Shown here one piece after another: positions 1,945 to 26,192 of a stretch of 29,767 nucleotides of DNA (the first letter of the stretch is position 1; each line of letters begins with the position of its first letter). This stretch comes from a virus (taxonomy: Duplodnaviria > Heunggongvirae > Uroviricota > Caudoviricetes), in IMG/VR virus record IMGVR_UViG_2534681604_000009; one strand, written 5' to 3'. Under the pieces are notes generated by a model that did not search any database, was not told the origin of the DNA, and saw only the letters and a list, made by a program, of their open reading frames with translations. The position numbers were made by a program, and so were the translations under genes.

Positions 1945-1958
1945 TTTTCGTCACCTCC

Positions 1959-4406
1959 TTAACCGTCATGCATCATGCTGGCACGGGCGCGCGCACGTTT
2001 ATCCCGCTCGTATTTTTCGAGCGCATCCTGTAACTGGCGGTCAAGCTGTGCCCCCGGCGCAGTACCGCCCTTCAGGCTGATGTGATATTCGTTTTTACTC
2101 TGGTCCACATAAGAGCGACCAGCCGGTGCCGTGACCGGCTGATAAGCCTGATAGCCTGCATAAGAGCTGGTCGCCGGAATATAACCACCGGTGCCATACG
2201 TGGCGGCATTAGTCCTTGCGGCGGTCTGGTCAAGTGTGCCTGACTCTTTGTTGATGACACCGAGTTTTTCCAGTACCCAGTCAATACCACTGCGCAGTTT
2301 GTTGAACGCATTAAGCGGCAGCATCAGCGCGTCAGCCAGTGCCTGCCCGAACATGACGCCCGTGTCACGGCAACGGTTCAGGGTGTCCTGGGTGGCTTTG
2401 ACCGGGGCAATCAGGTTTTTAAACCACTGCCACGCGGCCTGTAACTTTTCACCCAGCCAGTCAAACACCGGCTTAAGTGGCGTGAACAGTTCCCCCACCG
2501 GCGCAAATGCCGCTTTCAGCCCTTCCACCACACCGCCAAAGAATGCGCTGACAGGCTCCCAGTATTTACGGATAAGTAACGCTCCGGCGACAATGGCGGC
2601 CACCACGGCCACTACCGGCCAGCTAATCGCCCCGATGGCCGTCATAACGGCACTGCCAACCGTCGTGAAGATTGCCCCCATTGCGCCTGCTGCTGCGATA
2701 ATGGCATTGATGCCGGTGATAACCGGCCAGGCTACGAGACCAATGGCACCGATGACACCAATCAGCGCCAGTGCACCACCGACAATGAGGCCGATGGTTG
2801 ACGCCAGTGATTTGTTTTTCTGGATCCAGCCGTCGAGTTTTAACACATATTTTGTGGCCGTCTGCGTGAGATTACGCAGTGCGCCTTCCTGCTGGTCAAA
2901 CAAGTCTGTCCCCACCGCCTCATAAGCGGACTGAAACTCCTTAAAGTCACCGCCGAGGTTGTCCTGCATGATATTTACCAGTTCTGCGGTCTTCCCGTCT
3001 GAGGCTTTAAACGCAGCAGTCAGTTTGTCCAGCTTTCCGGTTGACGCGGCAGTCATCAGCACAGCGGCGGCTGAGCTGGCCTCCTCCCCGAAAATAGTTT
3101 TCATGTATTCAGCCTGCTGGGCAGTACCGAGCCGGTTTTTCTCAAAACTGGCCTGCATTTCTTTCAGAATGGTAAATACTGGCCGGGTATTCCCCTTACT
3201 GTCTGAGGTTTTCACGCCAAGCTCTTTGAGTGCATCCCATGCTTTTCCCGTCGGTGCCTGCAGGCGGCTTAACACGGCACGGCTTCCCGTCCCCGCCATT
3301 GAGCCTGTGATTTTTGCATCATGCAGTACCCCGACCATTGCGGCGGTTTCTTCAATGCTGACACCGGCATTTTTTGCCACAGGTGCGGCATAGGTCAGCG
3401 CATCGCTCATGCCGTCAAAATCGGCGGCGGTTTTGTTCATCGTCATGGAGAGAACATCCCCGATATGAGCGACCTTATCGTTTGAAAGCTGAAAGGCGGA
3501 TTTCATCCCCATCAGCAGGGCGGCGTTTTCCTCCATCGTGCGGCGGTTTGCCAGCGCCATGTTCAGCGTGACCGGCGTTGCCGCCTGAATGGCATCAACA
3601 TCCCCACCGGCTTTTGCAATGATAATCTGTGCACCGGCTGCATCATCCGCCGAGGCGGCGGTATTGTCGCCGAGCTGGCGCGCCTGCTTGCGGAGTGCTG
3701 TCATTTCGGCGGAGTCTTTTGCCACTCCTAGCACGGCCTGCAATTCTGAGTTTTTCTGCGCAAACTCATAACCGGGCATCAGCAGCTTAACTCCGGCCAT
3801 CGTTCCCGCCGCCGCAATCCCCACACCGGCAGCGCCCACCGAGGCCATATTTCCGGCCAGCTCCTTTCCTGTCTGATAACGCTGTTTTACTGCGTTAAGT
3901 TTTGCCTGTTGCGCACTGACACGCGCCAGCGCATCACGCTGACGGTTAAGCTGTGTGGTGGTTTCGCTGATACGGTTTTTCAGCCCTCGTTCATCATGCG
4001 CCAGATTACGGGTATTAATACCCGCCTGACTCAATTCCTGACGCTGGCGCTGTACCGACAATCTCAGGCTGTTATATTTCGCCTGTAACTCAGACGCATT
4101 TTTACGCGCGGCTTCCATTGCCTTTGCCTGTGCATTTGTCGGTCGTTCAGTATTTTTAAACTGGACAGCCAGAGCTGCGGCTTCCTGTCTGGCTTTTTTC
4201 AGTTCCTGACCAGTCACGGCGAGCTGTGCGCTGGTCTTGCGAAATCCCTCAATACGGGATGCGTGACCGTTCAGCTCGCGCAGTGATTTTTGTGTTTCCC
4301 GGATATCCCCCGACAGCGACTTACTCGCTGTGCGGATGGATTTAAACGGGCGGGATGCCTGGTCAACAGCCCTGAGCAATACCTGTAATTTTACATTGTT
4401 ACTCAT
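1959..4406 (-). CDS. T: Tail tape measure protein T
   Basis: 815-aa ORF with a coiled-coil-rich N-terminal half and a hydrophobic Gly/Ala-rich central segment. It sits downstream of E/E', which is the standard chaperone then tape-measure arrangement. The size equals P2 gpT. Confidence 0.9.
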   Translation of the reverse strand: MSNNVKLQVLLRAVDQASRPFKSIRTASKSLSGDIRETQKSLRELNGHASRIEGFRKTSAQLAVTGQELKKARQEAAALAVQFKNTERPTNAQAKAMEAARKNASELQAKYNSLRLSVQRQRQELSQAGINTRNLAHDERGLKNRISETTTQLNRQRDALARVSAQQAKLNAVKQRYQTGKELAGNMASVGAAGVGIAAAGTMAGVKLLMPGYEFAQKNSELQAVLGVAKDSAEMTALRKQARQLGDNTAASADDAAGAQIIIAKAGGDVDAIQAATPVTLNMALANRRTMEENAALLMGMKSAFQLSNDKVAHIGDVLSMTMNKTAADFDGMSDALTYAAPVAKNAGVSIEETAAMVGVLHDAKITGSMAGTGSRAVLSRLQAPTGKAWDALKELGVKTSDSKGNTRPVFTILKEMQASFEKNRLGTAQQAEYMKTIFGEEASSAAAVLMTAASTGKLDKLTAAFKASDGKTAELVNIMQDNLGGDFKEFQSAYEAVGTDLFDQQEGALRNLTQTATKYVLKLDGWIQKNKSLASTIGLIVGGALALIGVIGAIGLVAWPVITGINAIIAAAGAMGAIFTTVGSAVMTAIGAISWPVVAVVAAIVAGALLIRKYWEPVSAFFGGVVEGLKAAFAPVGELFTPLKPVFDWLGEKLQAAWQWFKNLIAPVKATQDTLNRCRDTGVMFGQALADALMLPLNAFNKLRSGIDWVLEKLGVINKESGTLDQTAARTNAATYGTGGYIPATSSYAGYQAYQPVTAPAGRSYVDQSKNEYHISLKGGTAPGAQLDRQLQDALEKYERDKRARARASMMHDG

Positions 4407-4826
4407 TCGTGTTTCCGCTTCGCCGGAGCGCCTTTTCGCGCCATGTGATGAGTTCGGTCAGGCTCATGGGATACAGTTCTGATGGCGGCCAGTGAAATAT
4501 CACTGCCACATCCGCCATCAGGTCATCGACCGAGAGATTTTTCGGAAACGTCACTGCACCGAGTTCGGCGACAAAAAACCGACCACCTTACCGGCCAGTG
4601 CCACAAGGTCAGGCAGTTCCAGCGCGGCGACCTCCTGCTCGGTCAGCATCGGTGCCGTCATGCGCGGCAGCACTTTAATCAGTGCATCGACTTCGGAGTT
4701 TGCGACCGCAGCCAGACTGACACCGCGCAGCGTCCCGGCATTAGGTTTCATCAACGTGACCTGTTCGATTACCTGCTCACCACGCTTGACCGGATTGTCC
4801 AGGGTAATCACATTTTCTTTGTTCAT
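4399..4826 (-). CDS. E+E': Tail assembly chaperone E+E' (programmed -1 frameshift product, 142 aa)
   Basis: Manual translation: the 0 frame reads ...GKVVGFL through GGT TTT TTG. After a -1 slip on T_TTT_TTG the reading frame stays open for 57 further codons (VAELGAVTFPKN...RRSGNTNE) to a TAA at 4399..4401, overlapping the T start. The 142-aa total matches P2 gpE+E'. Confidence 0.72.
4551..4826 (-). CDS. E: Tail assembly chaperone E (unshifted product, 91 aa)
   Basis: 91-aa ORF MNKENVITLDNPVKRGEQ... directly upstream of T. The slippery site lies near its 3' end. Confidence 0.85.
   Translation of the reverse strand: MNKENVITLDNPVKRGEQVIEQVTLMKPNAGTLRGVSLAAVANSEVDALIKVLPRMTAPMLTEQEVAALELPDLVALAGKVVGFLSPNSVQ
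4572..4578 (-). other. Slippery heptamer T_TTT_TTG for the -1 ribosomal frameshift
   Basis: The + strand reads caaaaaa at 4572..4578, which is TTTTTTG on the coding (-) strand in X_XXY_YYZ register with the E frame. Confidence 0.7.
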
Positions 4827-4882
4827 GGTTTTCTCACTTCTGAATCAGGGTTAACCGGTCAGCCTGGCTGACCGGATGAAAA

Positions 4883-5401
4883 TCACAGGCCGATATTGCG
4901 GCGGTGTTGCTCCAGCCGGTCGACGCCGTTCACCTTCTCAATCATGTTGATGGTGTCGATTTCGACCAGCTCCTTACCGTCCATCGTCAGCCGGAAATAG
5001 GTGCAGACCACAGAGATTTTCGACTCGGTGTCTTCTCCCTGTTTCCCCTCGCCGGTGTCGATTTCTTTCTGACGTCCACGCATGACCACTTCGACGGCCA
5101 CCGTTTCGCCGGTATCGTCACGCTGGTAAGAACCAGCAAAACGAATCGGCACGGCATCCACGCCGGTTGCGGCGTAAAGCTCCCAGATAACCGAATCCGG
5201 GAAGCCCCCGAGCGACCACTCCATTGACAGCGCATCGTCATCAAGGCCGAGGTCTACCGGTGCGCTGCCGTTCATCCCCGCACCGCGATAGTTTTCGAGC
5301 TTACGGGTCAGTTTTGGCAGCGTGACGGACTTTGCAACGCCCTGATAGCTGTAGCCGTTCAGAAAGACGTTCATTAACTTGAGTTTGCGCGGCATTGCCA
5401 T
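4883..5401 (-). CDS. FII: Tail tube protein FII
   Basis: 172-aa ORF downstream of FI with an ATG start confirmed. Size and synteny match P2 gpFII. Confidence 0.9.
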   Translation of the reverse strand: MAMPRKLKLMNVFLNGYSYQGVAKSVTLPKLTRKLENYRGAGMNGSAPVDLGLDDDALSMEWSLGGFPDSVIWELYAATGVDAVPIRFAGSYQRDDTGETVAVEVVMRGRQKEIDTGEGKQGEDTESKISVVCTYFRLTMDGKELVEIDTINMIEKVNGVDRLEQHRRNIGL

Positions 5402-5413
5402 CGGTCAGGCTCC

Positions 5414-6604
5414 TTAATTGCTGTTAACCGAAGTGACCAGACTTGCCAGGTATCTGGAAGTAATACGCTGGCGCAGGGTCAGATTTTCAAGAGGAGGCAC
5501 CGGGGTATAGTCGTAGTCGATATACAGTTTTCCGGCCTTGAGGGTTTCCGCATCGTTGGATTCTTCGCTGAACCAGCATGTGCCATCCACGATATAACCG
5601 TTGTTTTTCAGCTCACGGAATTTGGCATTGATGCCGTCAATGATGTCGCGAATCAGCGTTGCGGTGATGGGCTTATCAATAGCCCACATGTGCGCCTCAG
5701 CCATAGTGTCGGCCAGTACCTGCGCGGTGCGGGTGTAGCTTTCAAAGAGGAACAGCGGGTCATCGGAGCAGGTACGGTTACCCCAGAATCGGAAACCGTC
5801 GCGGCGAACCAGCGTTGTGACGCCTGCCTCGTTCAACAGGTCAGCATCAGTGCCGGACTTCTGCAAATCCCAGAATACAGATGCGCTGATGCCGGTAACA
5901 CCGTTTACCCCGACGTTGGACAGCGTTTTATGCCAGCCCTGCTCCTGGTCGATTTTAGCGCGCAGACCCAGCGCACGGGCGGTGGCATACGCGGTGGCGG
6001 TGGTACTGGTGACCGTATCCCATGCGAGGAAATCCGGCCAGATGACCATCAGCTCACGCTGGCTGAAATTCTGGCGGTAGGCTTTCACCTCGGAAATGGT
6101 TTTACAGCCCCATGCGCTGATATACCCGAATGCATTCAGTTCCTGGCATACCGATGCCAGTGCAACAGCCACCTCTTTGGTGTCCAGCCCCGGCACACCA
6201 AGAATGCGCGGTTTAACGCCGGTAACCGACTCAGCCCCCATCAGGGCTTTCAGTCCGGTGTACTGACCGTTTTCGTCGGTGGTGCCGATGATATTGGAAA
6301 CGGTCTGCGCGAGTTTCGTTTCCTCGTCGTCGCCGGTGCCGTCTTCCACACGCACGACAACGGTGACCGGTTTTGACTGGTCGGCGATGGCCTGCAACGA
6401 TGCCGCCAGCGTGCCTTTTTTACCAGCCTTTGCAATTGCGCTCTGCACATTGGTAATCAGCACCGGTTTATTGAGGGGGAAGGTTTCCGCATCCGCATCG
6501 CTGGCCGTGCAGACCATGCCGACAATGGCAGTGGATACGGTGGAAATGACGCGGGTGCCGTCGTTAATCTCCAGCACCTGCACGCCGTGATGATAGTCAC
6601 TCAT
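5414..6604 (-). CDS. FI: Contractile tail sheath protein FI
   Basis: 396-aa ORF and first gene of the FI-FII-E-T-U-D block. A GGAG sequence lies upstream of the ATG at 6602..6604 (- strand). Confidence 0.9.
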   Translation of the reverse strand: MSDYHHGVQVLEINDGTRVISTVSTAIVGMVCTASDADAETFPLNKPVLITNVQSAIAKAGKKGTLAASLQAIADQSKPVTVVVRVEDGTGDDEETKLAQTVSNIIGTTDENGQYTGLKALMGAESVTGVKPRILGVPGLDTKEVAVALASVCQELNAFGYISAWGCKTISEVKAYRQNFSQRELMVIWPDFLAWDTVTSTTATAYATARALGLRAKIDQEQGWHKTLSNVGVNGVTGISASVFWDLQKSGTDADLLNEAGVTTLVRRDGFRFWGNRTCSDDPLFLFESYTRTAQVLADTMAEAHMWAIDKPITATLIRDIIDGINAKFRELKNNGYIVDGTCWFSEESNDAETLKAGKLYIDYDYTPVPPLENLTLRQRITSRYLASLVTSVNSN

Positions 6605-6700
6605 CCGTTTAACTCCGTGGTTAATGGGTGCAACTATTGTCTGTTGGGCAGTGCATGAGACGCTATTTGACCTGACTGGTCAGTGGATGAAACAACAGAT
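6605..6700 (-). promoter_or_regulatory. Region expected to hold the Ogr-dependent late promoter of the FI operon
   Basis: Placed by synteny with the P2 late promoter P_F. I could not find a clean TGT-N12-ACA element; a CTGACTGGTCAG palindrome lies around 6671..6683. Confidence 0.3.
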
Positions 6701-6729
6701 AAAGAAAAGGCGGGCAATCAGCCCGCCTG
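6701..6729 (-). terminator. GC hairpin (GGCGGGC-aatca-GCCCGCC) with a U-tract on the - strand; possible insulator or terminator upstream of FI
   Basis: The inverted repeat is at 6709..6715 and 6721..6727. The + strand aaagaaaa at 6701..6708 gives UUUUCUUU after the stem on the - strand. Confidence 0.35.
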
Positions 6730-6781
6730 CCTTGATTTGTACTCACTCAGTTTCCAACTGACAAATTACGTAACCAAAACC

Positions 6782-6797
6782 CTGTCAAATCTGACAG
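6782..6797. repeat. Inverted repeat CTGTCA-aatc-TGACAG
   Basis: Read directly from the sequence at 6782..6797, about 150 bp upstream of the cargo ORF. Confidence 0.5.
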
Positions 6798-6818
6798 TCT
6801 GCTTTGAGCGAGGAGCGG

Positions 6819-6840
6819 ACGATGAATTCGAATTCATCGT
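6819..6840. repeat. Perfect 22-bp palindrome ACGATGAATTC|GAATTCATCGT (candidate operator)
   Basis: Read directly from the sequence; it is its own reverse complement and contains two abutting GAATTC hexamers. It lies about 105 bp upstream of the cargo ORF start. Confidence 0.5.
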
Positions 6841-6945
6841 AAAAATTTTTATGGCCAAGTAGCTCTATAAGGCCTTTCATTAAAGCTATCTTTGTCACAA
6901 AGCTTATGCAAAAAGTGACTTTATCTTTAAATCTAATAAGATAAC

Positions 6946-7761
6946 ATGATTGACGAAACTCCAAAATCAACTTTACTTAAGCAAAAACGAGGCATGCAAT
7001 TGAAAAAGATTAGGAAAATCAATAAAAAAATCATTGATGAATTGCTATCTCTTCGCGAATCAAGAGGAGCTATAGAAGACTTCTCAATGTCTTTCCTACT
7101 AAATTTTGCAGAAAATTGTCGACTTATGCATTCACTTATTTCAACGAAAGATAAGAAAATAGATATTTACAAAACAGCATATCGACAATATTTTGTATTT
7201 CTAATCAGTTGCTGGGAAACCTATTTTAGAGACGTTTTTGTTTTCGTGCACTCAGTTGATGAATCTAGAATTGCAACACTACTATCTAAAATGAGAACAG
7301 AAACATCTATCAATATAAATACCGAGATAAATCTATCAGAATTATTGAGTAAAAGCTTTAACTTTCAAAACTTAAACGACCTTGAAGAAGCATATAATGG
7401 CATGTGGGGTGAGAGCTTTTTAGACTACATATGTACAACTAATATATCGCCTTGCGGTCTGAGTGGCCAGATTTCCCAAGGTTTATCGATAGAAAATATA
7501 TTTCCAGACTGGAGAGCCCTCATAGAGGAAGCATTTTACATTAGGCACAAAGTGGTTCACGATGCAAACTTCAGACCTAAAGTCAACATTGAATTAATCA
7601 GTAAGGTAGAGACTTTGTTTTTAATAATCCCTCAATTTGCAACGCATATCATATCAGAAAGATTCAACTTAAAAAAAATCGTCATTTCAGATGGTCAAAA
7701 TAACCATACCTATATTCTCAATGTCAGTGATATATTATCTGATGATTGGGTTGTTAGTTGA
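6946..7761 (+). CDS. Hypothetical protein, AT-rich cargo ORF at the Z/fun-equivalent variable locus (candidate defence or abortive-infection gene)
   Basis: 271-aa ORF in opposite orientation to the flanking late genes, visibly AT-rich (about 30 percent GC in the 60-nt blocks I counted). It lies between G and FI, the position of Z/fun in P2. An R-x4-H motif (IRHKVVHD, codons 7543..7560) is present. The start is uncertain: 6946 has a weak SD and an alternative ATG is at 6994. Confidence 0.7.
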   Translation: MIDETPKSTLLKQKRGMQLKKIRKINKKIIDELLSLRESRGAIEDFSMSFLLNFAENCRLMHSLISTKDKKIDIYKTAYRQYFVFLISCWETYFRDVFVFVHSVDESRIATLLSKMRTETSININTEINLSELLSKSFNFQNLNDLEEAYNGMWGESFLDYICTTNISPCGLSGQISQGLSIENIFPDWRALIEEAFYIRHKVVHDANFRPKVNIELISKVETLFLIIPQFATHIISERFNLKKIVISDGQNNHTYILNVSDILSDDWVVS

Positions 7762-7784
7762 TGATGGAATTGTAAGTATATTAA

Positions 7785-7834
7785 CACAAAAAACAAAGAA
7801 ACTAATGAAGTCCGCTTCTGGCACAGAGCGGACT
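7785..7834 (-). terminator. Rho-independent terminator after G (end of the V-W-J-I-H-G operon)
   Basis: Stem aGTCCGCT (7809..7816), loop tctggcacag, stem AGCGGACt (7827..7834). On the - strand it is followed by the U-rich tract UUCAUUAGUUUCUUUGUUUUUUGUGUU. A weaker T-run lies on the + strand side, so it may act in both directions. Confidence 0.5.
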
Positions 7835-7894
7835 GTCAGATTAGTTTTTACTCTGTGCCATAGATGAGTAATCTCACACCAGATCTAATACGAT

Positions 7895-8473
7895 TTATTG
7901 TGGCATTTCAGGCCATTCTATATCCGGAGCATCTTCCGGCTGAACGCGATTCAGTAGCACACGGTATTTTTTCCAGTGTGTCAGACTTAACTTTTCTTCC
8001 TCGGTAGCCATATCTAAATCGACAGCATCCTGCAGCGTGGCAATAATTTCACCGGCATATGCAATCTGCTCTTTCCTCTGAGACTCCGCCGCTCTGACAA
8101 GTGCATCACGCTCTGCATTCTCATCATTCACCCACGCATTTCCGTTCCATTTCTGATAATCCCCATCCGGGGAAATGGCTGTCACGTCAGGTGGTAATGC
8201 ACCAAGTTCAGAAATATATATGGCTGCTCCTGTTTTTGTTTCATAGACAGTTTTCCCACGATGGTCCTCTATCAAATGCCATTTCATTTCGTCTGCATTG
8301 AAAACGGCAGCATAGCCAGCCGGAATATCTGGAGGTGCAATGTCTGTACTGTTTGCAGGCAGACCAGTATGCGGCGGAATATATGCATCGCTTTCGCCAA
8401 TAAATTCATTGCTTCCATCCAGTAAATTAAATACACGAATAGTTTGTGCCTCTGCACTCATTCTGAAAGTCAT
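7895..8473 (-). CDS. G: Tail fibre assembly chaperone G
   Basis: 192-aa ORF immediately downstream of H, with a TAATG stop/start overlap. Position matches P2 gpG. Confidence 0.85.
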
Positions 8474-10251
8474 TATGCCAGCCTCACAATATAGTTAAAT
8501 GCGATGTTTTTAACGGTGTTTTCTGAATTACCCGTAGCATTTACCGTGATGGTATGTCCGTGCGCCCCCAATGCCACAGTGTGTGCATGGGCACCAATAC
8601 CTACGGTGTGGTTATGTTGACCAATGTCGACAGTATGAGCATGGTTCCCTGCTGCACTTGATGTTCCATTAAATGATGGATTATCAAAACCTGTATAACC
8701 GGTTTCACTGTTGGTTCTGGCATTACCCCTGTAAATGGTATGGGTATGATTACCTGTTGTATTGGTGGTTTTGGTGCCATGGTTAAACGTGCTGACTGTC
8801 TTCGTGCCGTAATCAAATGAACTTGTCGTTTTCGTTCCTAAATCCGTATTTGACGCACTGGCGCTGTGAGTATGCGATTTAATACCGTCCTGTTCCTGAG
8901 ACAATACAGCACGACCACTAGCGGGTTTACCCTTGATTATCCAGCCGCGCAAATCTGGAATCACTCCTGACGGATAAGCGACTGCAAGCAGGGGATAGGC
9001 TGCTTTATCAAAAGTCTGCCCCTGCATAATGGCATAGCCTGTAGGTACTGAATCAGAAGGCCACGGGATCGGAGCACCTGCCGGAAAGTTGTTGTACCCG
9101 TCATGATGAATCAACTTCCAGCCTTTAAAAACACCTGCGCAAACTGCCGCAAAACCGATTACATCTCCATTAAAATCAATGCCAATAACAGTATTGTATC
9201 CCTGAGTATTGCTGTGTGCAGAGTTGATGTAGTGCTTCCAGGTGTGTCCTCCAGGCATTCCATTCTTTGCTGAGGAAGCATTAAAAAAGCCACCACGCGT
9301 ACGTAAATCAGTAGCAATATCACTTATATTTTCGGCGTACTCATTTAATCCCGCTCCTTTAGGTACTCGCTTGTTTGCATTGTCATTAGCAGCTTTCACT
9401 GCTTTCGGAGTCGCGGCAAGCGTTTCAGAATCGCTGTTGGTGGCACTACTTAGCTGGACAAGCCCTTTTCGTGCCGTGGTGGCGTCCTGTGCGGTGTATT
9501 TGCCATTAGCAAGGTCATATGCTGTCTTAACCGCCTTTGGCGTTGCTGCGAGCGTCTCAGATTCGCTGTTGGTGGCACTACTTAGCTGAACAAGACCTTT
9601 TCGCCCCGTGCTGGCGTCCTGAGCGGTATATTTTCCGTTAGCAAGGTCATACGCTGCCTTAACCGCCTTCGGCGTTGCGGCCAGCGTTTCAGATTCACTA
9701 TTGGTCGCGCTGCTTAACTGAGTAAAACCTTTTGCAGTCAGTGAGGCGTCCGGATGGCGTCGTGACTGTTCGTGCTCTGCAATTTTGTCATCAACGTAAT
9801 CCTGCGTCGCCATCACCGTTGTGGTGTCGATGGTCAGATCCACTGAGGCCACACTGCTGACGATAATGACCATGCGGCAGGTCTGCGAACGTCCTGAGCC
9901 TTCGGCAAGGGCAGGCTTATAACTTTCGGCCATGTTCGCCACGGCAATTAACGCACCGGTATCATCGTACAGACCAAGTTCACGCATCCAGAAACCGCCC
10001 ACCTCCGGCGGGATGACCAGCTCTGCGATAATATAATTACTGTGTCGATTGTCCTGACTGATTTTATTCAGGGCATGTCGCCAGACCTCATTAACAAGTT
10101 TTGTCTGTCCGGCATCCGGCACCGGCAATTGACCGCCACCGTCCCCGACGGCCATCGTGGTAATGTTGACCTTCCTGCCTCCCGGTGCAGTCGCCGCTGC
10201 CAGCTTTGCTGCACCGGCAGTAGTGATAACGGTTTGGAACTTTACGCTCAT
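8473..10251 (-). CDS. H: Tail fibre protein H
   Basis: 592-aa ORF with a conserved P2-like N-terminus, internal tandem repeats and a C-terminal region rich in HxH motifs (HTH, HAH, HNH, HGH). Confidence 0.9.
9382..9725. repeat. Tandem repeat of about 126 bp, about 2.7 copies, inside H
   Basis: Three near-identical protein units [35 protein letters not shown](S/T)T(G/A)RKGLVQ at H residues about 179..290. The DNA repeats are visible at 9400..9720. Confidence 0.7.
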
Positions 10252-10261
10252 TATTCCTCAC

Positions 10262-10792
10262 TTATCCTGGGTAAACCGTAATAACATCGCCGTCATAAGC
10301 CACACCACCGGCAAACAGATAACCGGGGATGTCCTGGGTAATATTCAGACCAATAAGGTGACGACTTGCAGGTTTGGCATCGGCAATCAGCCGTTCCATT
10401 TCCAGATACATCTCCTCCGTGATGCCGCTTTCCAGTACGCCGATATCAAGCCGGAAGGTGCCGGGCGGGTCGCTGTTTTCCCACCACTCCGTCACGTTGA
10501 TGAGATAGCCGAGCGGCTCCACCACACGCCGGATTGCGCCGACAGTGCCTTTATGACAATGAATGAAATAGGCATCGCGGATAACGGCGCGTTTTGTCGC
10601 TTCCGGCCACTTTTCATCCCACCTGTCGACCGAAAACGCCCACGCCAGCCACGGCAGCAGATTTGCCGGACAGGTATCCGGGTTCCACAGCTCACGAATA
10701 CTGACCGGCGTTTTTTCAATTTCCGCACAGGCTTTTGCGGCGGCGACTTCAAGCAGTGATGAGCCGGTCGGCAGCAGTCGCGAATCACTCAT
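10262..10792 (-). CDS. I: Baseplate assembly protein I
   Basis: 176-aa ORF overlapping the J stop by 8 nt. Synteny and size match P2 gpI. Confidence 0.88.
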   Translation of the reverse strand: MSDSRLLPTGSSLLEVAAAKACAEIEKTPVSIRELWNPDTCPANLLPWLAWAFSVDRWDEKWPEATKRAVIRDAYFIHCHKGTVGAIRRVVEPLGYLINVTEWWENSDPPGTFRLDIGVLESGITEEMYLEMERLIADAKPASRHLIGLNITQDIPGYLFAGGVAYDGDVITVYPG

Positions 10793-11693
10793 CCGAGCCT
10801 CCGGTCACGACGCGGTATTCGGTACAGAAAGACGCCTGCGTACTGTTGAGCACGATGTCGGCCAGCGGTGCAGCCAGTTCGACACGCTGCACACCTTCCA
10901 CATGCAAAGCGGCATAAATGGCAGACAGACGGATGTCGCGCCCCAGCCGGTGCTGTGCCGTGATGTACGCTTCCAGCTTTTTCACGGCGGCAGCGCGGAT
11001 GGGTTCACTTTCTGGACCAGGGTAAAGGTAAAGCGTGGCGTTTATCTGGTATTCAACGATGGCGGCAGACTGCACGGTCACGCGGTCGGCCACCGGCCTG
11101 ACGTCCTCGCCATTAAGGGCGTTGCGCACCACCGCCAGCAGGTCTTCGGATGCGACACCGTTATTTTCGCGAGACAGCACGGAGATAGTGACGCAGGCCG
11201 GAGACGGACTGGTGACAGAGATATCCGCGACACGCCCGTCGGCACTGCGGCCATGATACTGATAGGCTCCCACCGACCCGGCGACGCTTAAGCCCTCAAA
11301 CGCCTGCTGAATACGCAGACGGTAATCGGTGTCAGACTCCATCACTTCCGGTGTCGGCGGGATGGTCGAATCATCTGCCGGGGTGATAGTCAGGCGCGTG
11401 GTGTTGTAATTGGCACCAATCACATCAAGGTCATTACCGGCGGCACAGGCCAGCATCACCGCCCGTGCGGCCTCATTCACGCGCTGACGCCAGATAAGCT
11501 CACGATAAGCATTCTCCTCCAGCAGTTTGACGAGAGGCTCGGATTCCAGCGTCAGGGTACGGGCGACCGCCTCCTGCTGGTCTTCCGGGTAAAGGGAAAT
11601 CAGTGTCGTCTTGCGTTCGGCAAGAATGGTTTCAAAGTCCAGCTCCTCGACCACATCCGGTGCGGGTAGCTGGTTCAGGTCGATAATCGGCAT
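10785..11693 (-). CDS. J: Baseplate assembly protein J
   Basis: 302-aa ORF. Synteny and size match P2 gpJ. Confidence 0.9.
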   Translation of the reverse strand: MPIIDLNQLPAPDVVEELDFETILAERKTTLISLYPEDQQEAVARTLTLESEPLVKLLEENAYRELIWRQRVNEAARAVMLACAAGNDLDVIGANYNTTRLTITPADDSTIPPTPEVMESDTDYRLRIQQAFEGLSVAGSVGAYQYHGRSADGRVADISVTSPSPACVTISVLSRENNGVASEDLLAVVRNALNGEDVRPVADRVTVQSAAIVEYQINATLYLYPGPESEPIRAAAVKKLEAYITAQHRLGRDIRLSAIYAALHVEGVQRVELAAPLADIVLNSTQASFCTEYRVVTGGSDE

Positions 11694-11697
11694 GGTT

Positions 11698-12045
11698 TCA
11701 ACTCACAGGGATGGTTAACGAAAGTGGCTGGCCGGTGTCGTTGTGCTGACCGGTTAACGTGACCGTCATTCGCCCGTCAAAACTGCGCGCCGTGGTGACG
11801 GATGACAGGGTGACGCGGGGTTCCCATTTCAGCACTGCCATGTAACAGGCGACCTTAATCTGCAACTCAAGCGCCGGAGTCTGCGGCTGGTCAATCATTG
11901 ACGCCAGCAACGAGCCGTAATCTCGACGCATCACCCGTGAGCCGACCGGTGTGCGCAGGATATCGCCGATACTCTGGCTGATATGCTCAAGGTCAGTGAC
12001 AGTCAGGCCATCACTGCGATTCATTCCGAGATAACGTGCTGTCAT
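11698..12045 (-). CDS. W: Baseplate wedge protein W (gp25-like)
   Basis: 115-aa ORF between V and J, overlapping V by 4 nt. Confidence 0.88.
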   Translation of the reverse strand: MTARYLGMNRSDGLTVTDLEHISQSIGDILRTPVGSRVMRRDYGSLLASMIDQPQTPALELQIKVACYMAVLKWEPRVTLSSVTTARSFDGRMTVTLTGQHNDTGQPLSLTIPVS

Positions 12046-12677
12046 AGAGGACTCCCGGTTGTGCCGCCGCTGTCGCCGGGGTGTTTATGGGTATGCAGTA
12101 CCTTACCGTTTGATGAGAGTTCACCGCCGGTGTGTTCAATGTTGCCGCGCATCGTCCCGCCCTTCTGCACTTCCAGCGTGCCGGTAGTCAGCTTGTTGGT
12201 GCAGACCACCTCCGGCGTGTCCAGAGTGACGCGGGTTGATGCTTTCACCGTGACCACCGGCACCGTGGCAGTAACAGAATCAGAAGCAGTCACGCTGGCC
12301 GTTTTAATTCCGCTTACCGTGAGTGCACTGGTTTCAGGTTCATACTCAATCACCGCCCCGTCAGGGAAACGGATATGCAGGGCATCCGCCGACGCAGACG
12401 GCGCGGGGTTATCACCGGAATAAATCCCCGGCAGAACAAACGCCGTGTCAAGTTCACCACCCACGGCCAGAATCAGCACCTGTTCCCCCACGGAAGGTGC
12501 CCACCATGTGCGCGAACGACCGGCGCGATGGGTCAGCCACTGAAGCCAGTCGGTGCACATGCCGCCGGTCTGCACACGGCAACGACCGGCGTCAAGGTCG
12601 GTTTCGACGACAAGGCCGGTACGAATCATGTTGCGCAGTGCGCGCGCGAGTTCCTGAATATTTGCGAGAGTGTTCAT
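12042..12677 (-). CDS. V: Baseplate central spike protein V
   Basis: 211-aa ORF and first gene of the V-to-G block. Confidence 0.88.
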   Translation of the reverse strand: MNTLANIQELARALRNMIRTGLVVETDLDAGRCRVQTGGMCTDWLQWLTHRAGRSRTWWAPSVGEQVLILAVGGELDTAFVLPGIYSGDNPAPSASADALHIRFPDGAVIEYEPETSALTVSGIKTASVTASDSVTATVPVVTVKASTRVTLDTPEVVCTNKLTTGTLEVQKGGTMRGNIEHTGGELSSNGKVLHTHKHPGDSGGTTGSPL

Positions 12678-12743
12678 AACGGGAAGGATGCCGCCGGGTC
12701 ATACCGGCGGCAATGTGACGATGAGGTGTCAGGAATGGCACAA
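12678..12743 (-). promoter_or_regulatory. S/V intergenic region; expected Ogr-dependent late promoter for the V operon, with a hairpin
   Basis: Placed by synteny with P2 P_V. A 9-bp-stem hairpin is at 12689..12712 (tGCCGCCGG-gtcata-CCGGCGGCa). Only an imperfect TGT-N12-ACC element is present on the - strand. Confidence 0.35.
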
Positions 12744-14602: not shown

Positions 14603-14616
14603 GGTGTTTACTCCGT

Positions 14617-15395: not shown

Positions 15396-15398
15396 GCG

Positions 15399-16111: not shown

Positions 16112-16210
16112 GACTACCTCTGAAAAGTCGGGCGGTGGACGCCGGTGCAGTGTCAGGTGATTCACCCTCACTGACCGGCGTGCCGCCCTGGCGCGGGGCG
16201 CATTCGGTTG

Positions 16211-16954: not shown

Positions 16955-16957
16955 CGG

Positions 16958-22253: not shown

Positions 22254-23576
22254 TTAGTTTGTTTTTTTAACTCCACTGTATTCAGCTATCATCCTCTCAA
22301 CCGCTGGAAGCAACTCAGCAGGAACGCAAATAGACCTATCTGCCTTTCCAACATCTTTTGGCGTTTTGTAAGTACCATTATAATTAAGGACGCATTCTTT
22401 AAGAATTTCAAAAAGAGAAACAATAGGGTCCACGCCATAGCTATCAATAAACTTTCGATAGCCATCATTATCAGATAACGATGAAATATCTCCATGAACA
22501 AACTTACACCTAAGCTCATAGATTATTCCTATTTTTGAATCAATATCAATAATTTTCGCCGCATCTCTGCAAACACCGCCAATAATTGAATTTTTATTAC
22601 CATTATTGGTTCCATACATAGCATCCAATGCTATAAATTGATTCAAAAACCTTTCACGTTTGTCATCCCTCCACCCGTGCGCTATAAAGGAAAGAGCAGA
22701 CAACATCCTTTTATCAGGTGATGAAAGTATTTTTGTAAGTATCGCCAAGGCTGAATCCGTTATATTTAAATTATATACAGACGGAATATTCACTCGAAAC
22801 TCACTTTCATGATATTTCCCGACACCAAAAGACTCAACTAGATTATTAACAGCAACTCGATTAATCACAAAAGGATTATCAACTGCAAGACATAAAGCTC
22901 CAAACAAACTATCAAACATTTTCACCGCTTTATCCTCTGATGAAGCATATGCCACCACCAAGCAGGATTTTGACTGTCGAAAATATTTCCCAATTGGTTT
23001 ATGCCGCATATATTCATCATCATAAAAATCAACAGGAACCTTGATGTCAGTTTTGTCTTTAATATCAGAAAGTAATTCCACCCCTAGCCCCGGGCCATAT
23101 AAAAATAAATTTTCTCTAAGCTCAAGCTTCCCATCAAAGCCAGCACACCCAAGATTATAAATATATGGACAGGATTTTATTCGTGAACGTATATAATACT
23201 TAAACATCTCACTAAGATTTTTTCTATGAACTTGCGTTATAATATCATCAACACAAATCTTATCAGGATTAAGCGACAGAAAATCAGCATCAATGCGATT
23301 GAAGGCTTCAGAACAAAAACCTAACAATAATCTTTTCGCATTGTGAAGGTCACTTATACCTAATTGGGGACCATATGCTTTTAATAACCTACTAGCACAT
23401 TTTGCAATCTCCTCATCATTATATGCAAGCCAAAAAACAAAATCTTCTAATGCTTTACCGACTTGAATACAAGGCTGCTCCTTACCATGACTATAAAAAA
23501 AACTTTTGCATAATTTGTTTATCATGCCATTAGAGAACGCAACCTTCATAGATACTTCATCCCTTAACGCACTCAT
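22254..23576 (-). CDS. Hypothetical protein, AT-rich cargo ORF at the tin/old-equivalent variable locus (candidate defence or abortive-infection gene)
   Basis: 440-aa ORF co-oriented with and just downstream of A, visibly AT-rich (about 33 to 35 percent GC in the blocks counted). An R-x4-H motif (ELRCKFVHGD, codons 22494..22511) lies in the C-terminal third. An alternative start at Met10 (23549) has an AGGGA SD-like sequence upstream. Confidence 0.72.
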   Translation of the reverse strand: MSALRDEVSMKVAFSNGMINKLCKSFFYSHGKEQPCIQVGKALEDFVFWLAYNDEEIAKCASRLLKAYGPQLGISDLHNAKRLLLGFCSEAFNRIDADFLSLNPDKICVDDIITQVHRKNLSEMFKYYIRSRIKSCPYIYNLGCAGFDGKLELRENLFLYGPGLGVELLSDIKDKTDIKVPVDFYDDEYMRHKPIGKYFRQSKSCLVVAYASSEDKAVKMFDSLFGALCLAVDNPFVINRVAVNNLVESFGVGKYHESEFRVNIPSVYNLNITDSALAILTKILSSPDKRMLSALSFIAHGWRDDKRERFLNQFIALDAMYGTNNGNKNSIIGGVCRDAAKIIDIDSKIGIIYELRCKFVHGDISSLSDNDGYRKFIDSYGVDPIVSLFEILKECVLNYNGTYKTPKDVGKADRSICVPAELLPAVERMIAEYSGVKKTN

Positions 23577-23659: not shown

Positions 23660-25927
23660 TTAAGAAAACATCACCCAATCGTCTTTTACAGCATAACTAA
23701 ACCGCTCACCTTCATAAATTACTGTTGCCCCGCGCGCCAACGCCTCAAGCTCCCATCGCTGCGGCCTGATACCGTTCTGAGCAAGGTCAACACGGATACG
23801 GGTGATTTGCAATCGTTCAGACCGGGTCAATCTGGCCGATGGTGCAATTTCATGTGGTTTTAACGGGCTTCCGTTTCTTTGCTGACGGTTTGGTGTTCTC
23901 AGGTCGTGTTTTAATGCGCCCCTGAGCGCCCTCACGACCTCCGTGTCATTCCATTCGATAACACCGTCATCAACCAGATTAAGCACTGCTGCGGCGTGTT
24001 CAGAAGGTGTGGGAGCCGGTAACGAAGTATCATCACCGGTGAGCTTTCCACAGTTATTGACAGGACTCCGAGGCGCGGCGATGCCGCTTTTTAAAGTCAA
24101 AGGCTCAACGACCGGAACTTTCGGCACAATGCGCCAGTCCGTCGTTCTGGTGATATGAATATGACGCGCGCCGAGATGCGGCGCGTAAATGCCGACCACT
24201 CTCTCGACTTCTTCCTCATACTCGTTAACGTCATCCGACGGGCTACGGGCAACCCTGACAGTCTGACAATCGCGCGGGACATTTGCCCCACCCTGCGCGC
24301 TGATATACAACGCAAAATCACCACTGTCTGCGGCAGCGCGAGCAGCCTCGACGCGTTCGTCAAACTCATCCGCAATACTGACGCCGCGAGGCAATTTGCG
24401 TAGTTCACGGTAAGCCCCCATTGTCGGCAGTCCAACCGTTTTAAATTGCGGGATGCGCCACGTTGACGCCCATGCGGTAACAGCCGCCGCAGTATCTTTC
24501 AGCGGTCTGCCGGTATCGTTATCGAGCTGACCATCCAGTGCATAGCCGTCGATATTTTTCGAAATGTATTTCGCGATATATCCCGCAGCACCGCCCCGGT
24601 TAAGGTGTTTTGCCTGAAAACGGTTTCGCGCGGCTCCTCTTTCGTCGCCATCCTCTTTGAGCGCATAGCGACGCATGATTTCGATAATCTGGTTACGCTG
24701 GCGTGGATTACAAAAAAGCATCATATGCCAGTGCGGCGTTCCGTCGTGGTGTGGCTCGACGACTCGCAAACCGTAGACCTGTAAATCATTATCCTTGAAT
24801 GCCGTGCGCATCAGGCTCCAGATACGGCAGAGATAACGCTGCGCATCCTTTGGATTAAATGCCTCATCATTCCAGCCGTGATTAAGCTGGACGGTTTTAT
24901 TTTCGCCTTTTCCAACCTGACGTGTCGGGTGATACTTTGACGGCGCGGTAAGCGTGATAAACATCCCCACATCACCCTCTGAGGCGGCGTAACGCTCAAT
25001 ACCGGCAATGGTGTTCATCAGCTCCATCCGGCGAATTTCAGGATTAGAAATACTGCCCATCACCTTACTGATAAGGTCGATGCGCTCGCCGGTTTCCTTG
25101 TTTTCAAGGTCACACGATTTAAGAAATTCCAGATTTGCCTGGCGGCGCGCACGCACATCACGAATGGCATGTTTACTGGCATAAGGAGAACGGTCTTTAT
25201 TCACCTCCCCAACAGCAATCAGTAACGCCTCATGCCAGCGCATACGCTGGCCTTTAAGCTGATGAGTCCACCACTCATCGTTAAACAGACGGGCAATGGC
25301 AGAATATGCCTGCCTCGTGGTCATCTGTCCTTTACGGTATTTTTTCCAGTAGAGAGGGGAAATATTGAAAGCACGTGCAGCGCCAGCAACATGACCATAG
25401 AGGTGAGCCTGCGCCTCATCCGTAAACAGCGATTCTTTCTCGCCATGCGCATCCACCCAGGCATCGCAGAGTTCCTCATACATCATGAAAAGCTGTGATG
25501 AGATACGGGCGGCAAACTTTTTCAGCTCCTTGTCATTCATCCCCGGCAGGCGCGCATACTGGTCGCGCTCTGCCAGAAACAGCAACGACGCGTCGGTGTT
25601 CATTTCATGGCGCTGATTCACGCGCTCAATGCGCGGCCATAAACGACGCTGAAAAGTGGATGTGAGGAAATAAAACCCGTGCACCGGGCTTTTATTGCGC
25701 CGGATGTAGTCATAGCGTGAAGTAAACAGCGAGCGCAAAAAGTAAGGCAGGCGGTTAATCGTGGATAAAACACCTTGCACCTGACGCATCTCGTCACGTG
25801 TAAGGGGTCTTTCGCGCCCGACAGCCTCGCGTGGCGCGTTCCATGCATAAGCACCGGTAAACGCCTTACCGGTGCCTGCGGCAAATGCTGACGGAGGGAC
25901 AAAACGCCCGGAGGCTTTAACGGCCAT
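23660..25927 (-). CDS. A: Replication initiation protein A (rolling-circle HUH nickase)
   Basis: Large ORF with an HUH-like motif (PHWHMMLF) and paired tyrosines (YIAKYISK). The track ORF begins with TTG at 25969; I prefer the ATG at 25925..25927 (MAVKASGRF...), but the start is uncertain. Confidence 0.88.
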   Translation of the reverse strand: MAVKASGRFVPPSAFAAGTGKAFTGAYAWNAPREAVGRERPLTRDEMRQVQGVLSTINRLPYFLRSLFTSRYDYIRRNKSPVHGFYFLTSTFQRRLWPRIERVNQRHEMNTDASLLFLAERDQYARLPGMNDKELKKFAARISSQLFMMYEELCDAWVDAHGEKESLFTDEAQAHLYGHVAGAARAFNISPLYWKKYRKGQMTTRQAYSAIARLFNDEWWTHQLKGQRMRWHEALLIAVGEVNKDRSPYASKHAIRDVRARRQANLEFLKSCDLENKETGERIDLISKVMGSISNPEIRRMELMNTIAGIERYAASEGDVGMFITLTAPSKYHPTRQVGKGENKTVQLNHGWNDEAFNPKDAQRYLCRIWSLMRTAFKDNDLQVYGLRVVEPHHDGTPHWHMMLFCNPRQRNQIIEIMRRYALKEDGDERGAARNRFQAKHLNRGGAAGYIAKYISKNIDGYALDGQLDNDTGRPLKDTAAAVTAWASTWRIPQFKTVGLPTMGAYRELRKLPRGVSIADEFDERVEAARAAADSGDFALYISAQGGANVPRDCQTVRVARSPSDDVNEYEEEVERVVGIYAPHLGARHIHITRTTDWRIVPKVPVVEPLTLKSGIAAPRSPVNNCGKLTGDDTSLPAPTPSEHAAAVLNLVDDGVIEWNDTEVVRALRGALKHDLRTPNRQQRNGSPLKPHEIAPSARLTRSERLQITRIRVDLAQNGIRPQRWELEALARGATVIYEGERFSYAVKDDWVMFS
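24050..24078 (-). other. ori: Candidate origin of replication (A-protein nick region) inside the A coding sequence
   Basis: The - strand reads GCGCCTCGGAGTCCTGTCAATAACTGTGG, encoding APRSPVNNCG of gpA. P2 ori is known to lie within gene A, and this matches my recollection of the nick-region sequence, which I cannot verify here. Confidence 0.4.
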
Positions 25928-26192
25928 ATGAGCCAAAAGCCTCAGAACAACGCTTGCTGAGTTGCTCAACCTGCGCGTTTAAATCAGCAAAAGACTTTGC
26001 GCCTCCGGTCAGAATATCGTGATGCATCAGGCCGGAAACGAGCTGGCTTAATTTCGGGTAATAACCAACCACCGCCAGCCATTCCTGACCGACGTTTTTA
26101 CCGCTTTCCGCTCTCTTTTTCTCGTGGAGAATAAACTGAAAGCTGTCACTGGTAACGACATAACGTTCGCCAATTTCAATACGAATACTCAT
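25917..26192 (-). CDS. Hypothetical early protein
   Basis: 91-aa ORF with an ATG start, located directly upstream of A in the early operon. Confidence 0.6.
   Translation of the reverse strand: MSIRIEIGERYVVTSDSFQFILHEKKRAESGKNVGQEWLAVVGYYPKLSQLVSGLMHHDILTGGAKSFADLNAQVEQLSKRCSEAFGSYGR

Follow-up and report, generated by a model that had tools for sequence, protein, structure and literature searches.

The RiboL-PSP-HEPN proteins were grouped with the Abi-like HEPN families by Anantharaman et al. (2013, PMC3710099), and they were predicted to be active RNases distantly related to AbiD and AbiF. Tha is a tail-activated HEPN anti-phage system of Staphylococcus aureus prophages (PMC11087260). In phage P2, the junction between genes G and FI is a second defense-enriched hotspot (PMC9519451). 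In the P2-like SopEPhi, this G–FI site is occupied by the SopE cassette of Salmonella phages, which lambdoid prophages carry as well (Mirold et al. 2001, as summarized in PMC7380047). In our literature searches, we found neither a reported experimental test of any RiboL-PSP-HEPN member nor a paper on the protein described here, which is encoded at the G–FI junction of a 29,767-nucleotide P2-like phage sequence (hereafter, the window).

The flanking genes of the window correspond to P2 FI and G by their position and flanking DNA: a tail sheath gene (396 aa; 5414–6604, minus strand) and a tail-fiber assembly gene (192 aa; 7895–8473, minus strand). Between them lies a 271-aa ORF (6946–7761, plus strand), as an earlier note on this DNA had described; PGAP gives the same annotation on a 97.7% identical copy. 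The note had regarded this ORF as the sole plus-strand gene of the late block. This holds for 302–19010, where the other long ORFs are all on the minus strand, but the terminase and portal pair (19088–21924) is also on the plus strand, as in P2. The ORF is AT-rich, as claimed, with a GC fraction of 0.30–0.36 along its length versus 0.52–0.58 in the flanks (~0.33 for the gene versus 0.52 for the whole window). The junction had also been called a variable locus of P2-like phages, in agreement with the residence of Fun(Z) there in P2 and with its documented status as a defense hotspot (PMC9519451); the G–FI cargo differs between P2, P2-EC67, and the window. A homologue of Fun, which the note had left as an option, is excluded because the best BLASTP match to P2 Fun(Z) (NP_046777) has an E value of 1.1 over 14 residues. 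The ORF of the P2-EC67 Z region (ORF1) is likewise without similarity to the window protein.

The ORF itself is real, but its length of 271 aa is probably an overestimate by 18 residues. The true coding sequence probably begins at TTG 7000 instead of ATG 6946 and encodes a 253-aa stand-alone protein (7000–7761, plus strand). This start is preferred because the homologues begin at the aligned position, where 8 of 11 homologous loci have TTG or GTG, most of the 11 with a GAGG-, AAGG-, or TAGG-type Shine–Dalgarno sequence ~7 nt upstream. In the window, we read a GAGG sequence at 6989–6992, 7 nt before TTG 7000. One homologous locus (L029) has ATG followed directly by TAA where the window has ATG 6994, and the annotation of PhiR11_1 places the start at the equivalent of TTG 7000. 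Homologues of ~254 aa span 93% of the query, and residues 1–16 of the 271-aa form have pLDDT values below 50 in the AF2 model. The gene is present in 28 of 5426 complete E. coli genomes, and the full 816-nt ORF was matched at 97.4–97.8% identity in every one. The dN/dS value between the window gene and a lambdoid copy is 0.12 (12 synonymous and 6 nonsynonymous differences), and a second value is 0.16. The gene is therefore subject to purifying selection.

The AF2 model of the protein (pLDDT 84, pTM 0.84) has a four-helix up-and-down core, and its fold is HEPN. The Pfam HMM PF18735 (HEPN_RiboL-PSP) matches residues 58–220 with an E value of 6e-6 and 26.7 bits, for which the curated cut-off is 28.4 bits. 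The same HMM matches 29 of 33 relatives at E ≤ 1e-3 and gives 32–40 bits, above the cut-off, in all 10 homologues tested. Membership in PF18735 is therefore assigned at the family level, with the window protein alone falling just short. The R-x4-H motif pointed out in the note (YIRHKVVHD) is present at the end of the helix formed by residues 189–205 in the model, and the RHKVVH sequence conforms to the R-x4-6-H motif of PF18735. Its codons occupy 7543–7560 (plus strand), and R200 and H205 of the 271-aa form correspond to R182 and H187 of the 253-aa form. R200, H201, and H205 never vary in an alignment of 33 homologues, nor do E91, T92, R95, and N139-F140-Q141; 23 columns are invariant across relatives of only 38–81% identity. 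A fusion to an endoRNase L-PSP domain, from which PF18735 takes its name but which does not strictly define it, is absent: the best 150 of 454 related clusters (from 1.84 billion proteins) are short, mostly 240–290 aa, and are matched in a single stretch. No ParB neighbor was seen in the homologous loci examined.

Searches against other collections placed the protein in no further family. No PADLOC-DB v2 family (including AbiD, AbiF, AbiV, ApeA, the PD systems, and the PDC candidates) matched at E ≤ 10, no PHROG model matched, and Foldseek searches of the model against the PDB and BFVD gave no significant match. The sole NCBIfam match (YggS, E = 0.08) and the sole match of the family profile in a search of PDB sequences (T4 β-glucosyltransferase, E = 0.02) are taken as chance.

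Homologues are rare, and their spread across phyla is patchy: 100,044 species genomes contained 11 loci. They are found in defense islands, integrative elements, and accessory-gene (moron) loci of other prophages. The Tolumonas homologue is in an island with NACHT, AbiGi, and SduA_C, the Proteus homologue shares its island with DUF4238, HNH, and type II Thoeris, and the Parashewanella homologue belongs to an integrative element that also carries TIR genes, ResIII, and a type I restriction–modification system. Other contexts are a CBASS locus with an integrase and a TIR/Nmad2/MazG_C cluster. A homologue in a second P2-like prophage adjoins a TIR-like effector, the lambdoid prophage copies adjoin the FRG protein PDC-S15, and some relatives stand alone among housekeeping genes.

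The palindromes noticed upstream of the gene are real (6782–6797, 6797–6820, and a perfect 22-nt palindrome at 6819–6840 followed by A5T5). The last of these, ACGATGAATTC/GAATTCATCGT with A5T5 (6819–6850, plus strand), is internal to the shared cassette described below and is kept in the lambdoid copies; lying upstream of the HEPN gene, it is a terminator-like insulator. A GC-rich hairpin of the P2 backbone at 6708–6728, which has an equivalent in P2, lies outside that cassette, between it and the FI promoter region. The claimed downstream hairpin also exists: the extended structure at 7797–7848, centered on the element R (see below) and followed by U-rich tracts on both strands, has a folding energy of −26.2 kcal/mol on the plus strand (z = −3.6) and −22.7 kcal/mol on the minus strand (z = −5.0), and none of 200 shuffled sequences folded as well. 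It likely terminates transcription in both directions, from the HEPN gene and from the V operon (…H, G). Silencing of the gene by antisense late transcription, in the style of Tha, is unlikely because the R-centered hairpin looks like an efficient minus-strand terminator. A scan for σ70 promoters upstream of the gene at a threshold of 9 of 12 matches found none. By eye, we tentatively place one at 6915–6942 on the plus strand (GTGACT, 16 nt, TAAGAT; 8 of 12 matches).

Here, we propose that the gene encodes a normally silent prophage HEPN RNase that aborts or excludes infection and thus constitutes a candidate single-gene anti-phage system, a reading to which we assign a probability of roughly 55%. 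The suggestion of a single-gene defense or exclusion protein had already been made in the note, and the location in the G/FI defense hotspot and the homologues in defense islands and mobile elements support it. The gene is carried as a self-contained moron cassette, in which the insulating terminator and a putative promoter region of its own precede the gene and the bidirectional terminator follows it. The lysogen would make a low level of protein, helped by the weak TTG start and the AT-rich gene, and the protein may be held inactive until infection by another phage serves as the presumed trigger. Not every HEPN domain is an RNase. The window protein is predicted to act upon infection as a metal-independent endoribonuclease that cuts through its R-x4-H site; as in other HEPN RNases, the two subunits of a dimer would probably share a composite active site. 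Cleavage of cellular RNA, phage RNA, or both would lead to abortive infection or exclusion, so that the prophage and the clonal host population would be protected.

The C-terminal tail of the protein (VSDILSDDWVVS; 7723–7758, plus strand) resembles the C terminus of Tad2/DUF2829 proteins. When the C-terminal profile of the family was compared with the PDB, Tad2 (8v3e) and ModTad2 (9eib) were matched with an E value of 6e-4, followed by AcrIIA7 (8kbi and 9kzr) and SPO1 Gp34.65 (8sme and 8wje); together, these structures account for 6 of the 14 PDB matches, and the matching motif is 14 residues long. Helix α3 near the Tad2 C terminus helps to form the gcADPR pocket (10.1101/2023.05.01.538930), and the matched segment may include this helix. 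The tail could bind a TIR-derived nucleotide such as gcADPR or His-ADPR, and the protein would be either a signal-activated RNase effector or a modulator of Thoeris that the prophage carries as a sponge or decoy. Besides the profile matches, PF11195 recurs below its cut-off of 25 bits in 7 of 10 homologues (13–18 bits, profile positions 40–73 only), two family members reach an E value of ~1e-4, and TIR-type genes lie one or two genes from the HEPN gene in ~5 of 20 contexts. However, the match covers only 14–33 residues, less than half of a Tad2 domain, and no full-length Tad2-like (PF11195/DUF2829) domain above the cut-off was found. Defense islands often hold TIR genes anyway; TIR neighbors occur in some relatives only, whereas the window cassette, which spreads as one gene, has no TIR gene and no ThsB beside the HEPN gene. 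The ThsB neighbors in Proteus and Parashewanella are dissimilar (E = 1.0), in contrast to their HEPN partners, which share 45% identity; no conserved HEPN–ThsB gene pair is therefore evident. We consider a link to TIR signaling unlikely.

The protein could instead be the toxin of an addiction or stabilization (toxin–antitoxin type) module that serves mainly to retain the cassette or prophage in the cell, more than to stop other phages; the cassette would then encode an unrecognized small RNA or peptide as antitoxin. A need for low expression is suggested by the weak TTG/GTG start, which is conserved, and ~200 bp of conserved noncoding DNA moves with the gene. Against this, the cassette lacks an MNT or other partner gene, its only small ORFs overlap its boundaries, and the upstream DNA beyond the Shine–Dalgarno sequence is not conserved among distant homologues. 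No MNT-type nucleotidyltransferase neighbor was present at any locus examined, and the window cassette comprises one gene. Rfam gave no RNA family above threshold; the sole match in 6500–8000, PrrB_RsmZ, reached 20 bits where the gathering score is 44 and is taken as chance. We consider such a module improbable.

The gene travels on a 1029-bp cassette (6801–7829, plus strand; ~33% GC) with 97.7% identity to copies in lambdoid and Mu-like prophages, and the same pair of hairpins brackets it in all three unrelated prophage types. In the window, the left hairpin L is GTCTGCT-TTGAGCGAGG-AGCGGAC (6797–6820, plus strand; outer P2 flank AATCTGACA at 6788–6796), and the right hairpin R is GTCCGCT-TCTGGCACAG-AGCGGAC (7810–7833, plus strand; outer P2 flank TGTCAGATT at 7834–7842). 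The general forms, 24 nt each, are GTCCGCT-NTGAGCGARN-AGCGGAC for L and GTCCGCT-TCTGGCACNN-AGCGGAC for R, each being an imperfect inverted repeat of the other. L and R bound arrays of mostly defense-gene cassettes in many enterobacterial phage contigs, and the junction in tandem arrays consists of R, a 15–18-nt spacer, and then L. The stems contain only a few compensatory pairs (GTCTGCT/AGCAGAC and GCCCGCT/AGCGGGC), and selection for the hairpin structure itself is therefore unsupported. L and R are not plain intrinsic terminators: T-runs are absent from their flanks at other loci, which limits a terminator reading to the particular P2 context of the window. The literature searched contains no description of a hairpin-delimited cassette system or of this hairpin sequence. 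As a tentative possibility, the HEPN gene may be cargo of a cassette system in which the hairpins serve as exchange sites between P2-like, lambdoid, and Mu-like prophages. A moron, as Hendrix and colleagues reportedly use the term, is an insert that separates genes neighboring each other in related phages, with deviant base composition and with a promoter and a terminator of its own. The variable G–FI cargo, the deviant GC content, and the terminator-like hairpins at both ends agree with that description.

Hairpin-bounded cassettes also hold nondefense cargo (an alcohol dehydrogenase with a LysR regulator, TerC, and TauE). This cargo, together with the relatives found alone amid housekeeping genes, would be compatible with lysogenic conversion or RNA processing apart from defense, for example in host RNA metabolism or the regulation of prophage transcripts. 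Most of the informative contexts are nevertheless defense islands or mobile elements, the rare and patchy distribution is typical of defense genes, and the HEPN subgroup is classed with Abi proteins (PMC3710099), which makes a nondefense role highly unlikely. Finally, a decaying hitch-hiker, carried by recombination and devoid of current function, would fit the low frequency in E. coli (28 of 5426 genomes) but is barely credible, being contradicted by the selection analysis (dN/dS 0.12–0.16), the full-length state of all 28 copies at 97.4–97.8% identity, and the 23 invariant columns despite 38–81% identity.

If the phenotype of the proposed anti-phage RNase is confirmed, the gene would represent a compact one-gene system of 253 aa from a family held in Pfam since the 2013 HEPN survey, and one more system in the underexplored second hotspot of P2-like prophages. 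A ready loss-of-function control is at hand in the invariant R-x4-H site, and the Tad2-like tail together with the recurrent TIR neighbors suggests a testable way in which the enzyme might be switched. The recombination process behind the rapid swapping of defense cassettes is a question posed in a preprint on P2/P4 hotspots (10.64898/2026.02.27.708500). The shared 1-kb cassette and the hairpins that bracket other defense arrays bear on it, and hairpin-mediated exchange, if true, would give a sequence-level handle on content swapping in defense hotspots.

Among the known HEPN systems, Tha shows no detectable sequence homology to the window protein, and Tha-1 (80alpha gp03) was rejected as a homologue (hhalign probability 0.6%). 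Tha also differs in its host phylum, in its place beside the integrase in 80alpha, and in having a cognate inhibitor, Ith. HEPN–MNT toxins, AbiV, the C-terminal domain of AbiA, ApeA, and Csm6 differ in that the window cassette has no MNT, RT, CARF, or other partner, and none of the PADLOC models for HEPN-MNT, AbiV, AbiA, ApeA, and Csm6 matches the window protein. P2 Fun(Z) shares with the window gene the G–FI locus, the antisense orientation to the late operons, the AT-rich composition, and the same flanking L and R elements, but it is a 527-aa protein unrelated to the window HEPN (E above 1). The SopE cassette resembles the HEPN cassette as a single gene within constant flanks, but its cargo is a type III effector, and SopEPhi does not carry the L and R hairpins. 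Within the RiboL-PSP-HEPN family, the window protein is distinguished by standing alone as prophage cargo and by the addition of an N-terminal helical hairpin and the C-terminal Tad2-like tail.

The plus-strand ORF at 6946..7761, which can encode 271 aa, is AT-rich (GC 0.30–0.36 versus 0.52–0.58 in both flanks) and is the sole plus-strand gene of its block; the remaining long ORFs within 302–19010 all lie on the minus strand. Its neighbors are a 396-aa tail-sheath gene (5414..6604, minus strand) and a 192-aa tail-fiber assembly gene (7895..8473, minus strand), and the DNA on both sides shares 91–94% identity with the corresponding FI-side and G-side sequence in P2, Wphi, and other Peduoviridae. 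The AT-rich antisense ORF, its position between G and FI, the upstream palindromes and downstream hairpin, and the motif YIRHKVVHD had all been described in the earlier note and are borne out here. The equivalent P2 interval holds fun(Z), which is likewise antisense to the late genes, and the G/FI locus is a second defense-enriched hotspot of P2, the source of three systems of Vassallo et al. (PMC9519451). At least 10 contigs encode this exact protein, and in all cases with visible flanks it maps between the G and FI genes of a P2-like prophage. The possibility that it is a Fun homologue was ruled out, since it is unrelated by sequence to P2 Fun(Z), and the Z-region protein of P2-EC67 was rejected as its identity for lack of similarity. 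A sub-threshold Rfam match to PrrB/RsmZ at 6701–6838 on the minus strand (20 bits, where the gathering score is 44; E 0.04), which overlaps the hairpin-rich left boundary, is probably due to chance. Elsewhere in the window, a 439-aa ORF (22254..23576, minus strand) lies between the portal gene and a 769-aa ORF (23660..25969), which, judging by position, is probably the P2 replication gene A. The interval would then correspond to the P2 old/tin hotspot, and the 439-aa ORF, without a Pfam or PADLOC match, may be another uncharacterized hotspot cargo.

The sole Pfam match of the window protein was PF18735 (HEPN_RiboL-PSP), with an E value of 6e-6 and a score of 26.7 bits, just short of the 28.4-bit cut-off. 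The profile was matched by 29 of 33 relatives, and all 10 relatives tested singly scored 32–40 bits; as a profile-based assignment, HEPN_RiboL-PSP is firm at the family level. The structure prediction called for in the earlier note, an AlphaFold2 model from the 33-sequence alignment, had a pLDDT of 84 and a pTM of 0.84. A Foldseek search of the model against PDB and BFVD gave nothing significant, and none of the PADLOC models, including those for the systems of Vassallo et al., matched the protein. Arg200, His201, and His205 (numbered in the 271-aa form) are invariant across the family alignment, as are Glu91, Thr92, Phe94, and Arg95 on the long central helix and Asn139-Phe140-Gln141 in an inserted region. 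In the survey of Anantharaman et al., “Ribo L-PSP-HEPN” is one of the Abi-like HEPN families, for which catalytic activity and a distant kinship to AbiD and AbiF were predicted; the authors also describe proteins in which it is fused to the mRNA endonuclease L-PSP (PMC3710099). Unlike these fusions, the window protein and its relatives are unfused.

The ORF is real, but its length of 271 aa is likely an overestimate. About 70 relatives were found, mostly of 250–260 aa with 93% query coverage, and their first residue aligns with window residue 17–19. At the aligned start, 8 of 11 loci have TTG or GTG, mostly with a Shine–Dalgarno sequence of the GAGG/AAGG/TAGG type ~7 nt upstream; non-ATG starts were observed at window position 7000 and in the homologous loci L005, L006, L008, L011, L025, L026, and L029. 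The L029 homologue has ATG-TAA at the position of the window ATG 6994, and the modeled residues 1–16 have pLDDT values below 50. Based on these alignments and the model, the product is most likely a 253-aa protein starting from TTG 7000. The retention of a weak start codon across genera may reflect selection for low expression, and a conserved TTG/GTG would suit a potentially toxic protein whose translation is selected to stay low.

The gene is under purifying selection: the window and lambdoid copies differ at 12 synonymous and 6 non-synonymous positions (dN/dS 0.12), and comparison with an 80%-identical homologue gave a dN/dS of 0.16. Its GC content is 27–37% in most hosts and 50–55% in two GC-rich hosts, in every case below that of the locus (32% to 67%). 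The family is small: a search of 1.84 billion representatives yielded 454 clusters (E ≤ 1e-3), and the closest relatives (best 150 of the 454 clusters) are nearly all stand-alone proteins of 240–290 aa. Of 100,044 species genomes, only 11 encode a member, and these are spread across Gammaproteobacteria, Desulfobulbia, Bacteroidota, Bacillota, and Myxococcota. The genomic company of the relatives is rich in defense genes. A Proteus island combines a relative with DUF4238, HNH, and type II Thoeris; a Parashewanella integrative element carries one together with TIR genes, ResIII, VspR, and a type I restriction–modification system; and in a Tolumonas island the companions are NACHT, AbiGi, SduA_C, and ParE. 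One relative adjoins a CBASS operon and an integrase, and another is terminal in a TIR/Nmad2/MazG_C/UDG cluster. Others reside on Bacteroides conjugative transposons or adjoin integrases, and a few stand alone amid housekeeping genes. In a P2-like prophage of Enterobacter kobei (L005, 7834–9930), a homologue and a TIR-like effector lie between the baseplate gene V and the tail-completion gene S, a further variable locus of P2-like phages and again antisense to the late genes. TIR-type neighbors (ThsB_TIR, TIR_2, or the TIR-like effector) were observed at L005 8983–9933 and in three other HEPN loci, L006 8855–10296, L008 7012–9433, and L027 1434–5171.

The C-terminal tail raises the question of a link to TIR signaling. 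In 7 of 10 homologues, the last ~30 residues match the C-terminal half of the Tad2-like (DUF2829) Pfam profile below threshold. A profile of the family C terminus searched against PDB matched Tad2 (8v3e) and prophage ModTad2 (9eib) with a best E value of 6e-4, aligning SVSDILAEDWNIVE of Tad2 with svkDILaeDWeive of the family consensus; the next matches were AcrIIA7 and SPO1 Gp34.65, and these four account for 6 of 14 matches. The window tail (7723–7758, plus strand; residues 260–271 of the 271-aa form) reads …SDILSDDWVVS (consensus DILAeDWeive) and matches the extreme C terminus of the Tad2/DUF2829 anti-Thoeris proteins and of AcrIIA7. In Tad2, the β4-to-α3 loop and helix α3 near the C terminus contribute to the gcADPR pocket (10.1101/2023.05.01.538930), and the segment matched by the tail is inferred to include α3. 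This resemblance and the TIR-type genes adjoining the HEPN gene in ~5 of 20 contexts would suit a protein tied to a TIR-derived signal. However, at two loci the ThsB neighbors show no similarity to one another although their HEPN partners are 45% identical, which counts against a fixed HEPN–ThsB partnership, and the window cassette has no TIR gene; we consider a link to a TIR signal quite unlikely.

The HEPN gene resides in a cassette shared between prophage types. Window positions 6801–7829 recur at 97.7% identity in the lambdoid phage PhiR11_1 and in E. coli prophages at the bio-ybhB site, where the flanks are not P2-like, and the segment also occurs in Mu-like prophages, adjoining an invertase. 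The allele is present in 28 of 5426 complete E. coli genomes, in none of them (0/28) in a P2 context. In the lambdoid and Mu-like prophages, the cassette is preceded by a 456-aa FRG protein (PADLOC candidate PDC-S15) and a 350-aa protein without a family match; this trio is conserved in PhiR11_1 (L001, 2003–4567) and in L003, L020, L021, and L022. The boundaries are marked by two related 24-nt hairpin elements, L (6797–6820; GTCTGCT-TTGAGCGAGG-AGCGGAC) and R (7810–7833; GTCCGCT-TCTGGCACAG-AGCGGAC), with the outer inverted flanks AATCTGACA and TGTCAGATT just outside. The L/R pair also brackets Fun(Z) in P2 and ORF1 in P2-EC67, where the GenBank record annotates inverted repeats. One P2-like prophage carries two cassettes in the order FI, L, HEPN, R, 18 nt, L′, ADH+LysR, R, G; the second, in the Z/fun locus of L013 (6933–9193), encodes a zinc alcohol dehydrogenase and a LysR regulator. 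Its end was also seen with a lambdoid right flank (L037 and L129), and this second cassette is thus common to P2-like and lambdoid phages. The lambdoid and Mu-like copies of the HEPN cassette keep L, have a degenerate R, and show an upstream R′ with a 16-nt spacer, the same junction type as in the two-cassette prophage. The SopE cassette, common to the P2 G/FI locus and lambdoid phages, is a conceptual precedent (PMC7380047), but SopEΦ lacks the L/R hairpins.

These elements extend well beyond the HEPN gene. When IMG/VR was scanned with the 15-mer GTCCGCTTCTGGCAC, at least 83 of the matches listed (78 unique contexts, with diverse flanks) had the complete hairpin, whereas the 3′ stem is expected by chance in ~1.3% of 15-mer matches. 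L elements, for which the scan did not select, were found in the expected order and orientation in at least ~60 loci; by our own calculation, ~0.3 chance matches are expected over ~1.2 Mb. Among the matches listed, L/R arrays comprise up to three or four cassettes of 0.3–6.5 kb each. The inter-cassette junction, R followed by 15–18 nt and L, was observed in many enterobacterial phage contigs (L/R at L013 6865–6932 and 9194–9217 and at L001 4855–4918 and 5908–5931; also L079, L053, L069, L103, and L149). The cargo of the listed loci forms at least 76 protein clusters, mostly defense genes: Shango SngA with helicases, retron-type RTs, SIR2, BrxC/D, CAP12-type TIR, a pPIWI-associated nuclease, three other HEPN families, GmrSD_N, and FRG. 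Non-defense cargo includes LysR, ADH, TerC, and TauE. P2 tail genes are nearby in only ~20% of the listed loci; elsewhere, lambdoid-type neighbors recur (DUF968, antiterminator Q, NinI-like phosphatase, SRAP, UmuC, and NEL effectors). An R-like sequence occurs in 2202 of 5426 (41%) complete E. coli genomes, at 1–5 places each, unannotated throughout. Compensatory stem changes are few, leaving selection on the structure unproven. The literature searched held neither a match to the hairpin sequence nor a description of L/R elements; according to a 2026 preprint on P2/P4 hotspots, how recombination brings about the rapid swapping has yet to be clarified (10.64898/2026.02.27.708500).

Here, we propose, as the reading with the most support, that the HEPN protein is a prophage-encoded endoribonuclease, probably dimeric and normally silent, which would be unleashed by an infection-borne trigger and thereby abort or exclude the infection; we give this explanation a probability of roughly 0.55. 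The HEPN fold, invariant motif, selection, defense-rich contexts, and known hotspot support the candidate single-gene defense role suggested in the earlier note. The protein is a new member of the single-gene HEPN Abi-like defense candidates in an already known prophage hotspot, and its interest is heightened by the Tad2-like tail and the hairpin-bounded cassette architecture. Functionally, the nearest precedent comes from S. aureus prophages: Tha consists of one 301-aa protein, which has a HEPN domain at its C terminus and an R-x4-H motif. Once triggered by the tail proteins of an incoming phage, Tha cleaves RNA non-specifically (PMC11087260). We also considered whether antisense late transcription silences the HEPN gene in a Tha-like manner; this seems unlikely because the hairpin at 7797–7848 on the V-operon strand (ΔG −22.7 kcal/mol, z −5.0), with a U-rich tract after it, resembles a strong terminator of V-operon transcripts. 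As Tha-1 (80alpha gp03) has no sequence relationship with the HEPN family, Tha is an analogue of the putative defense RNase rather than a relative.
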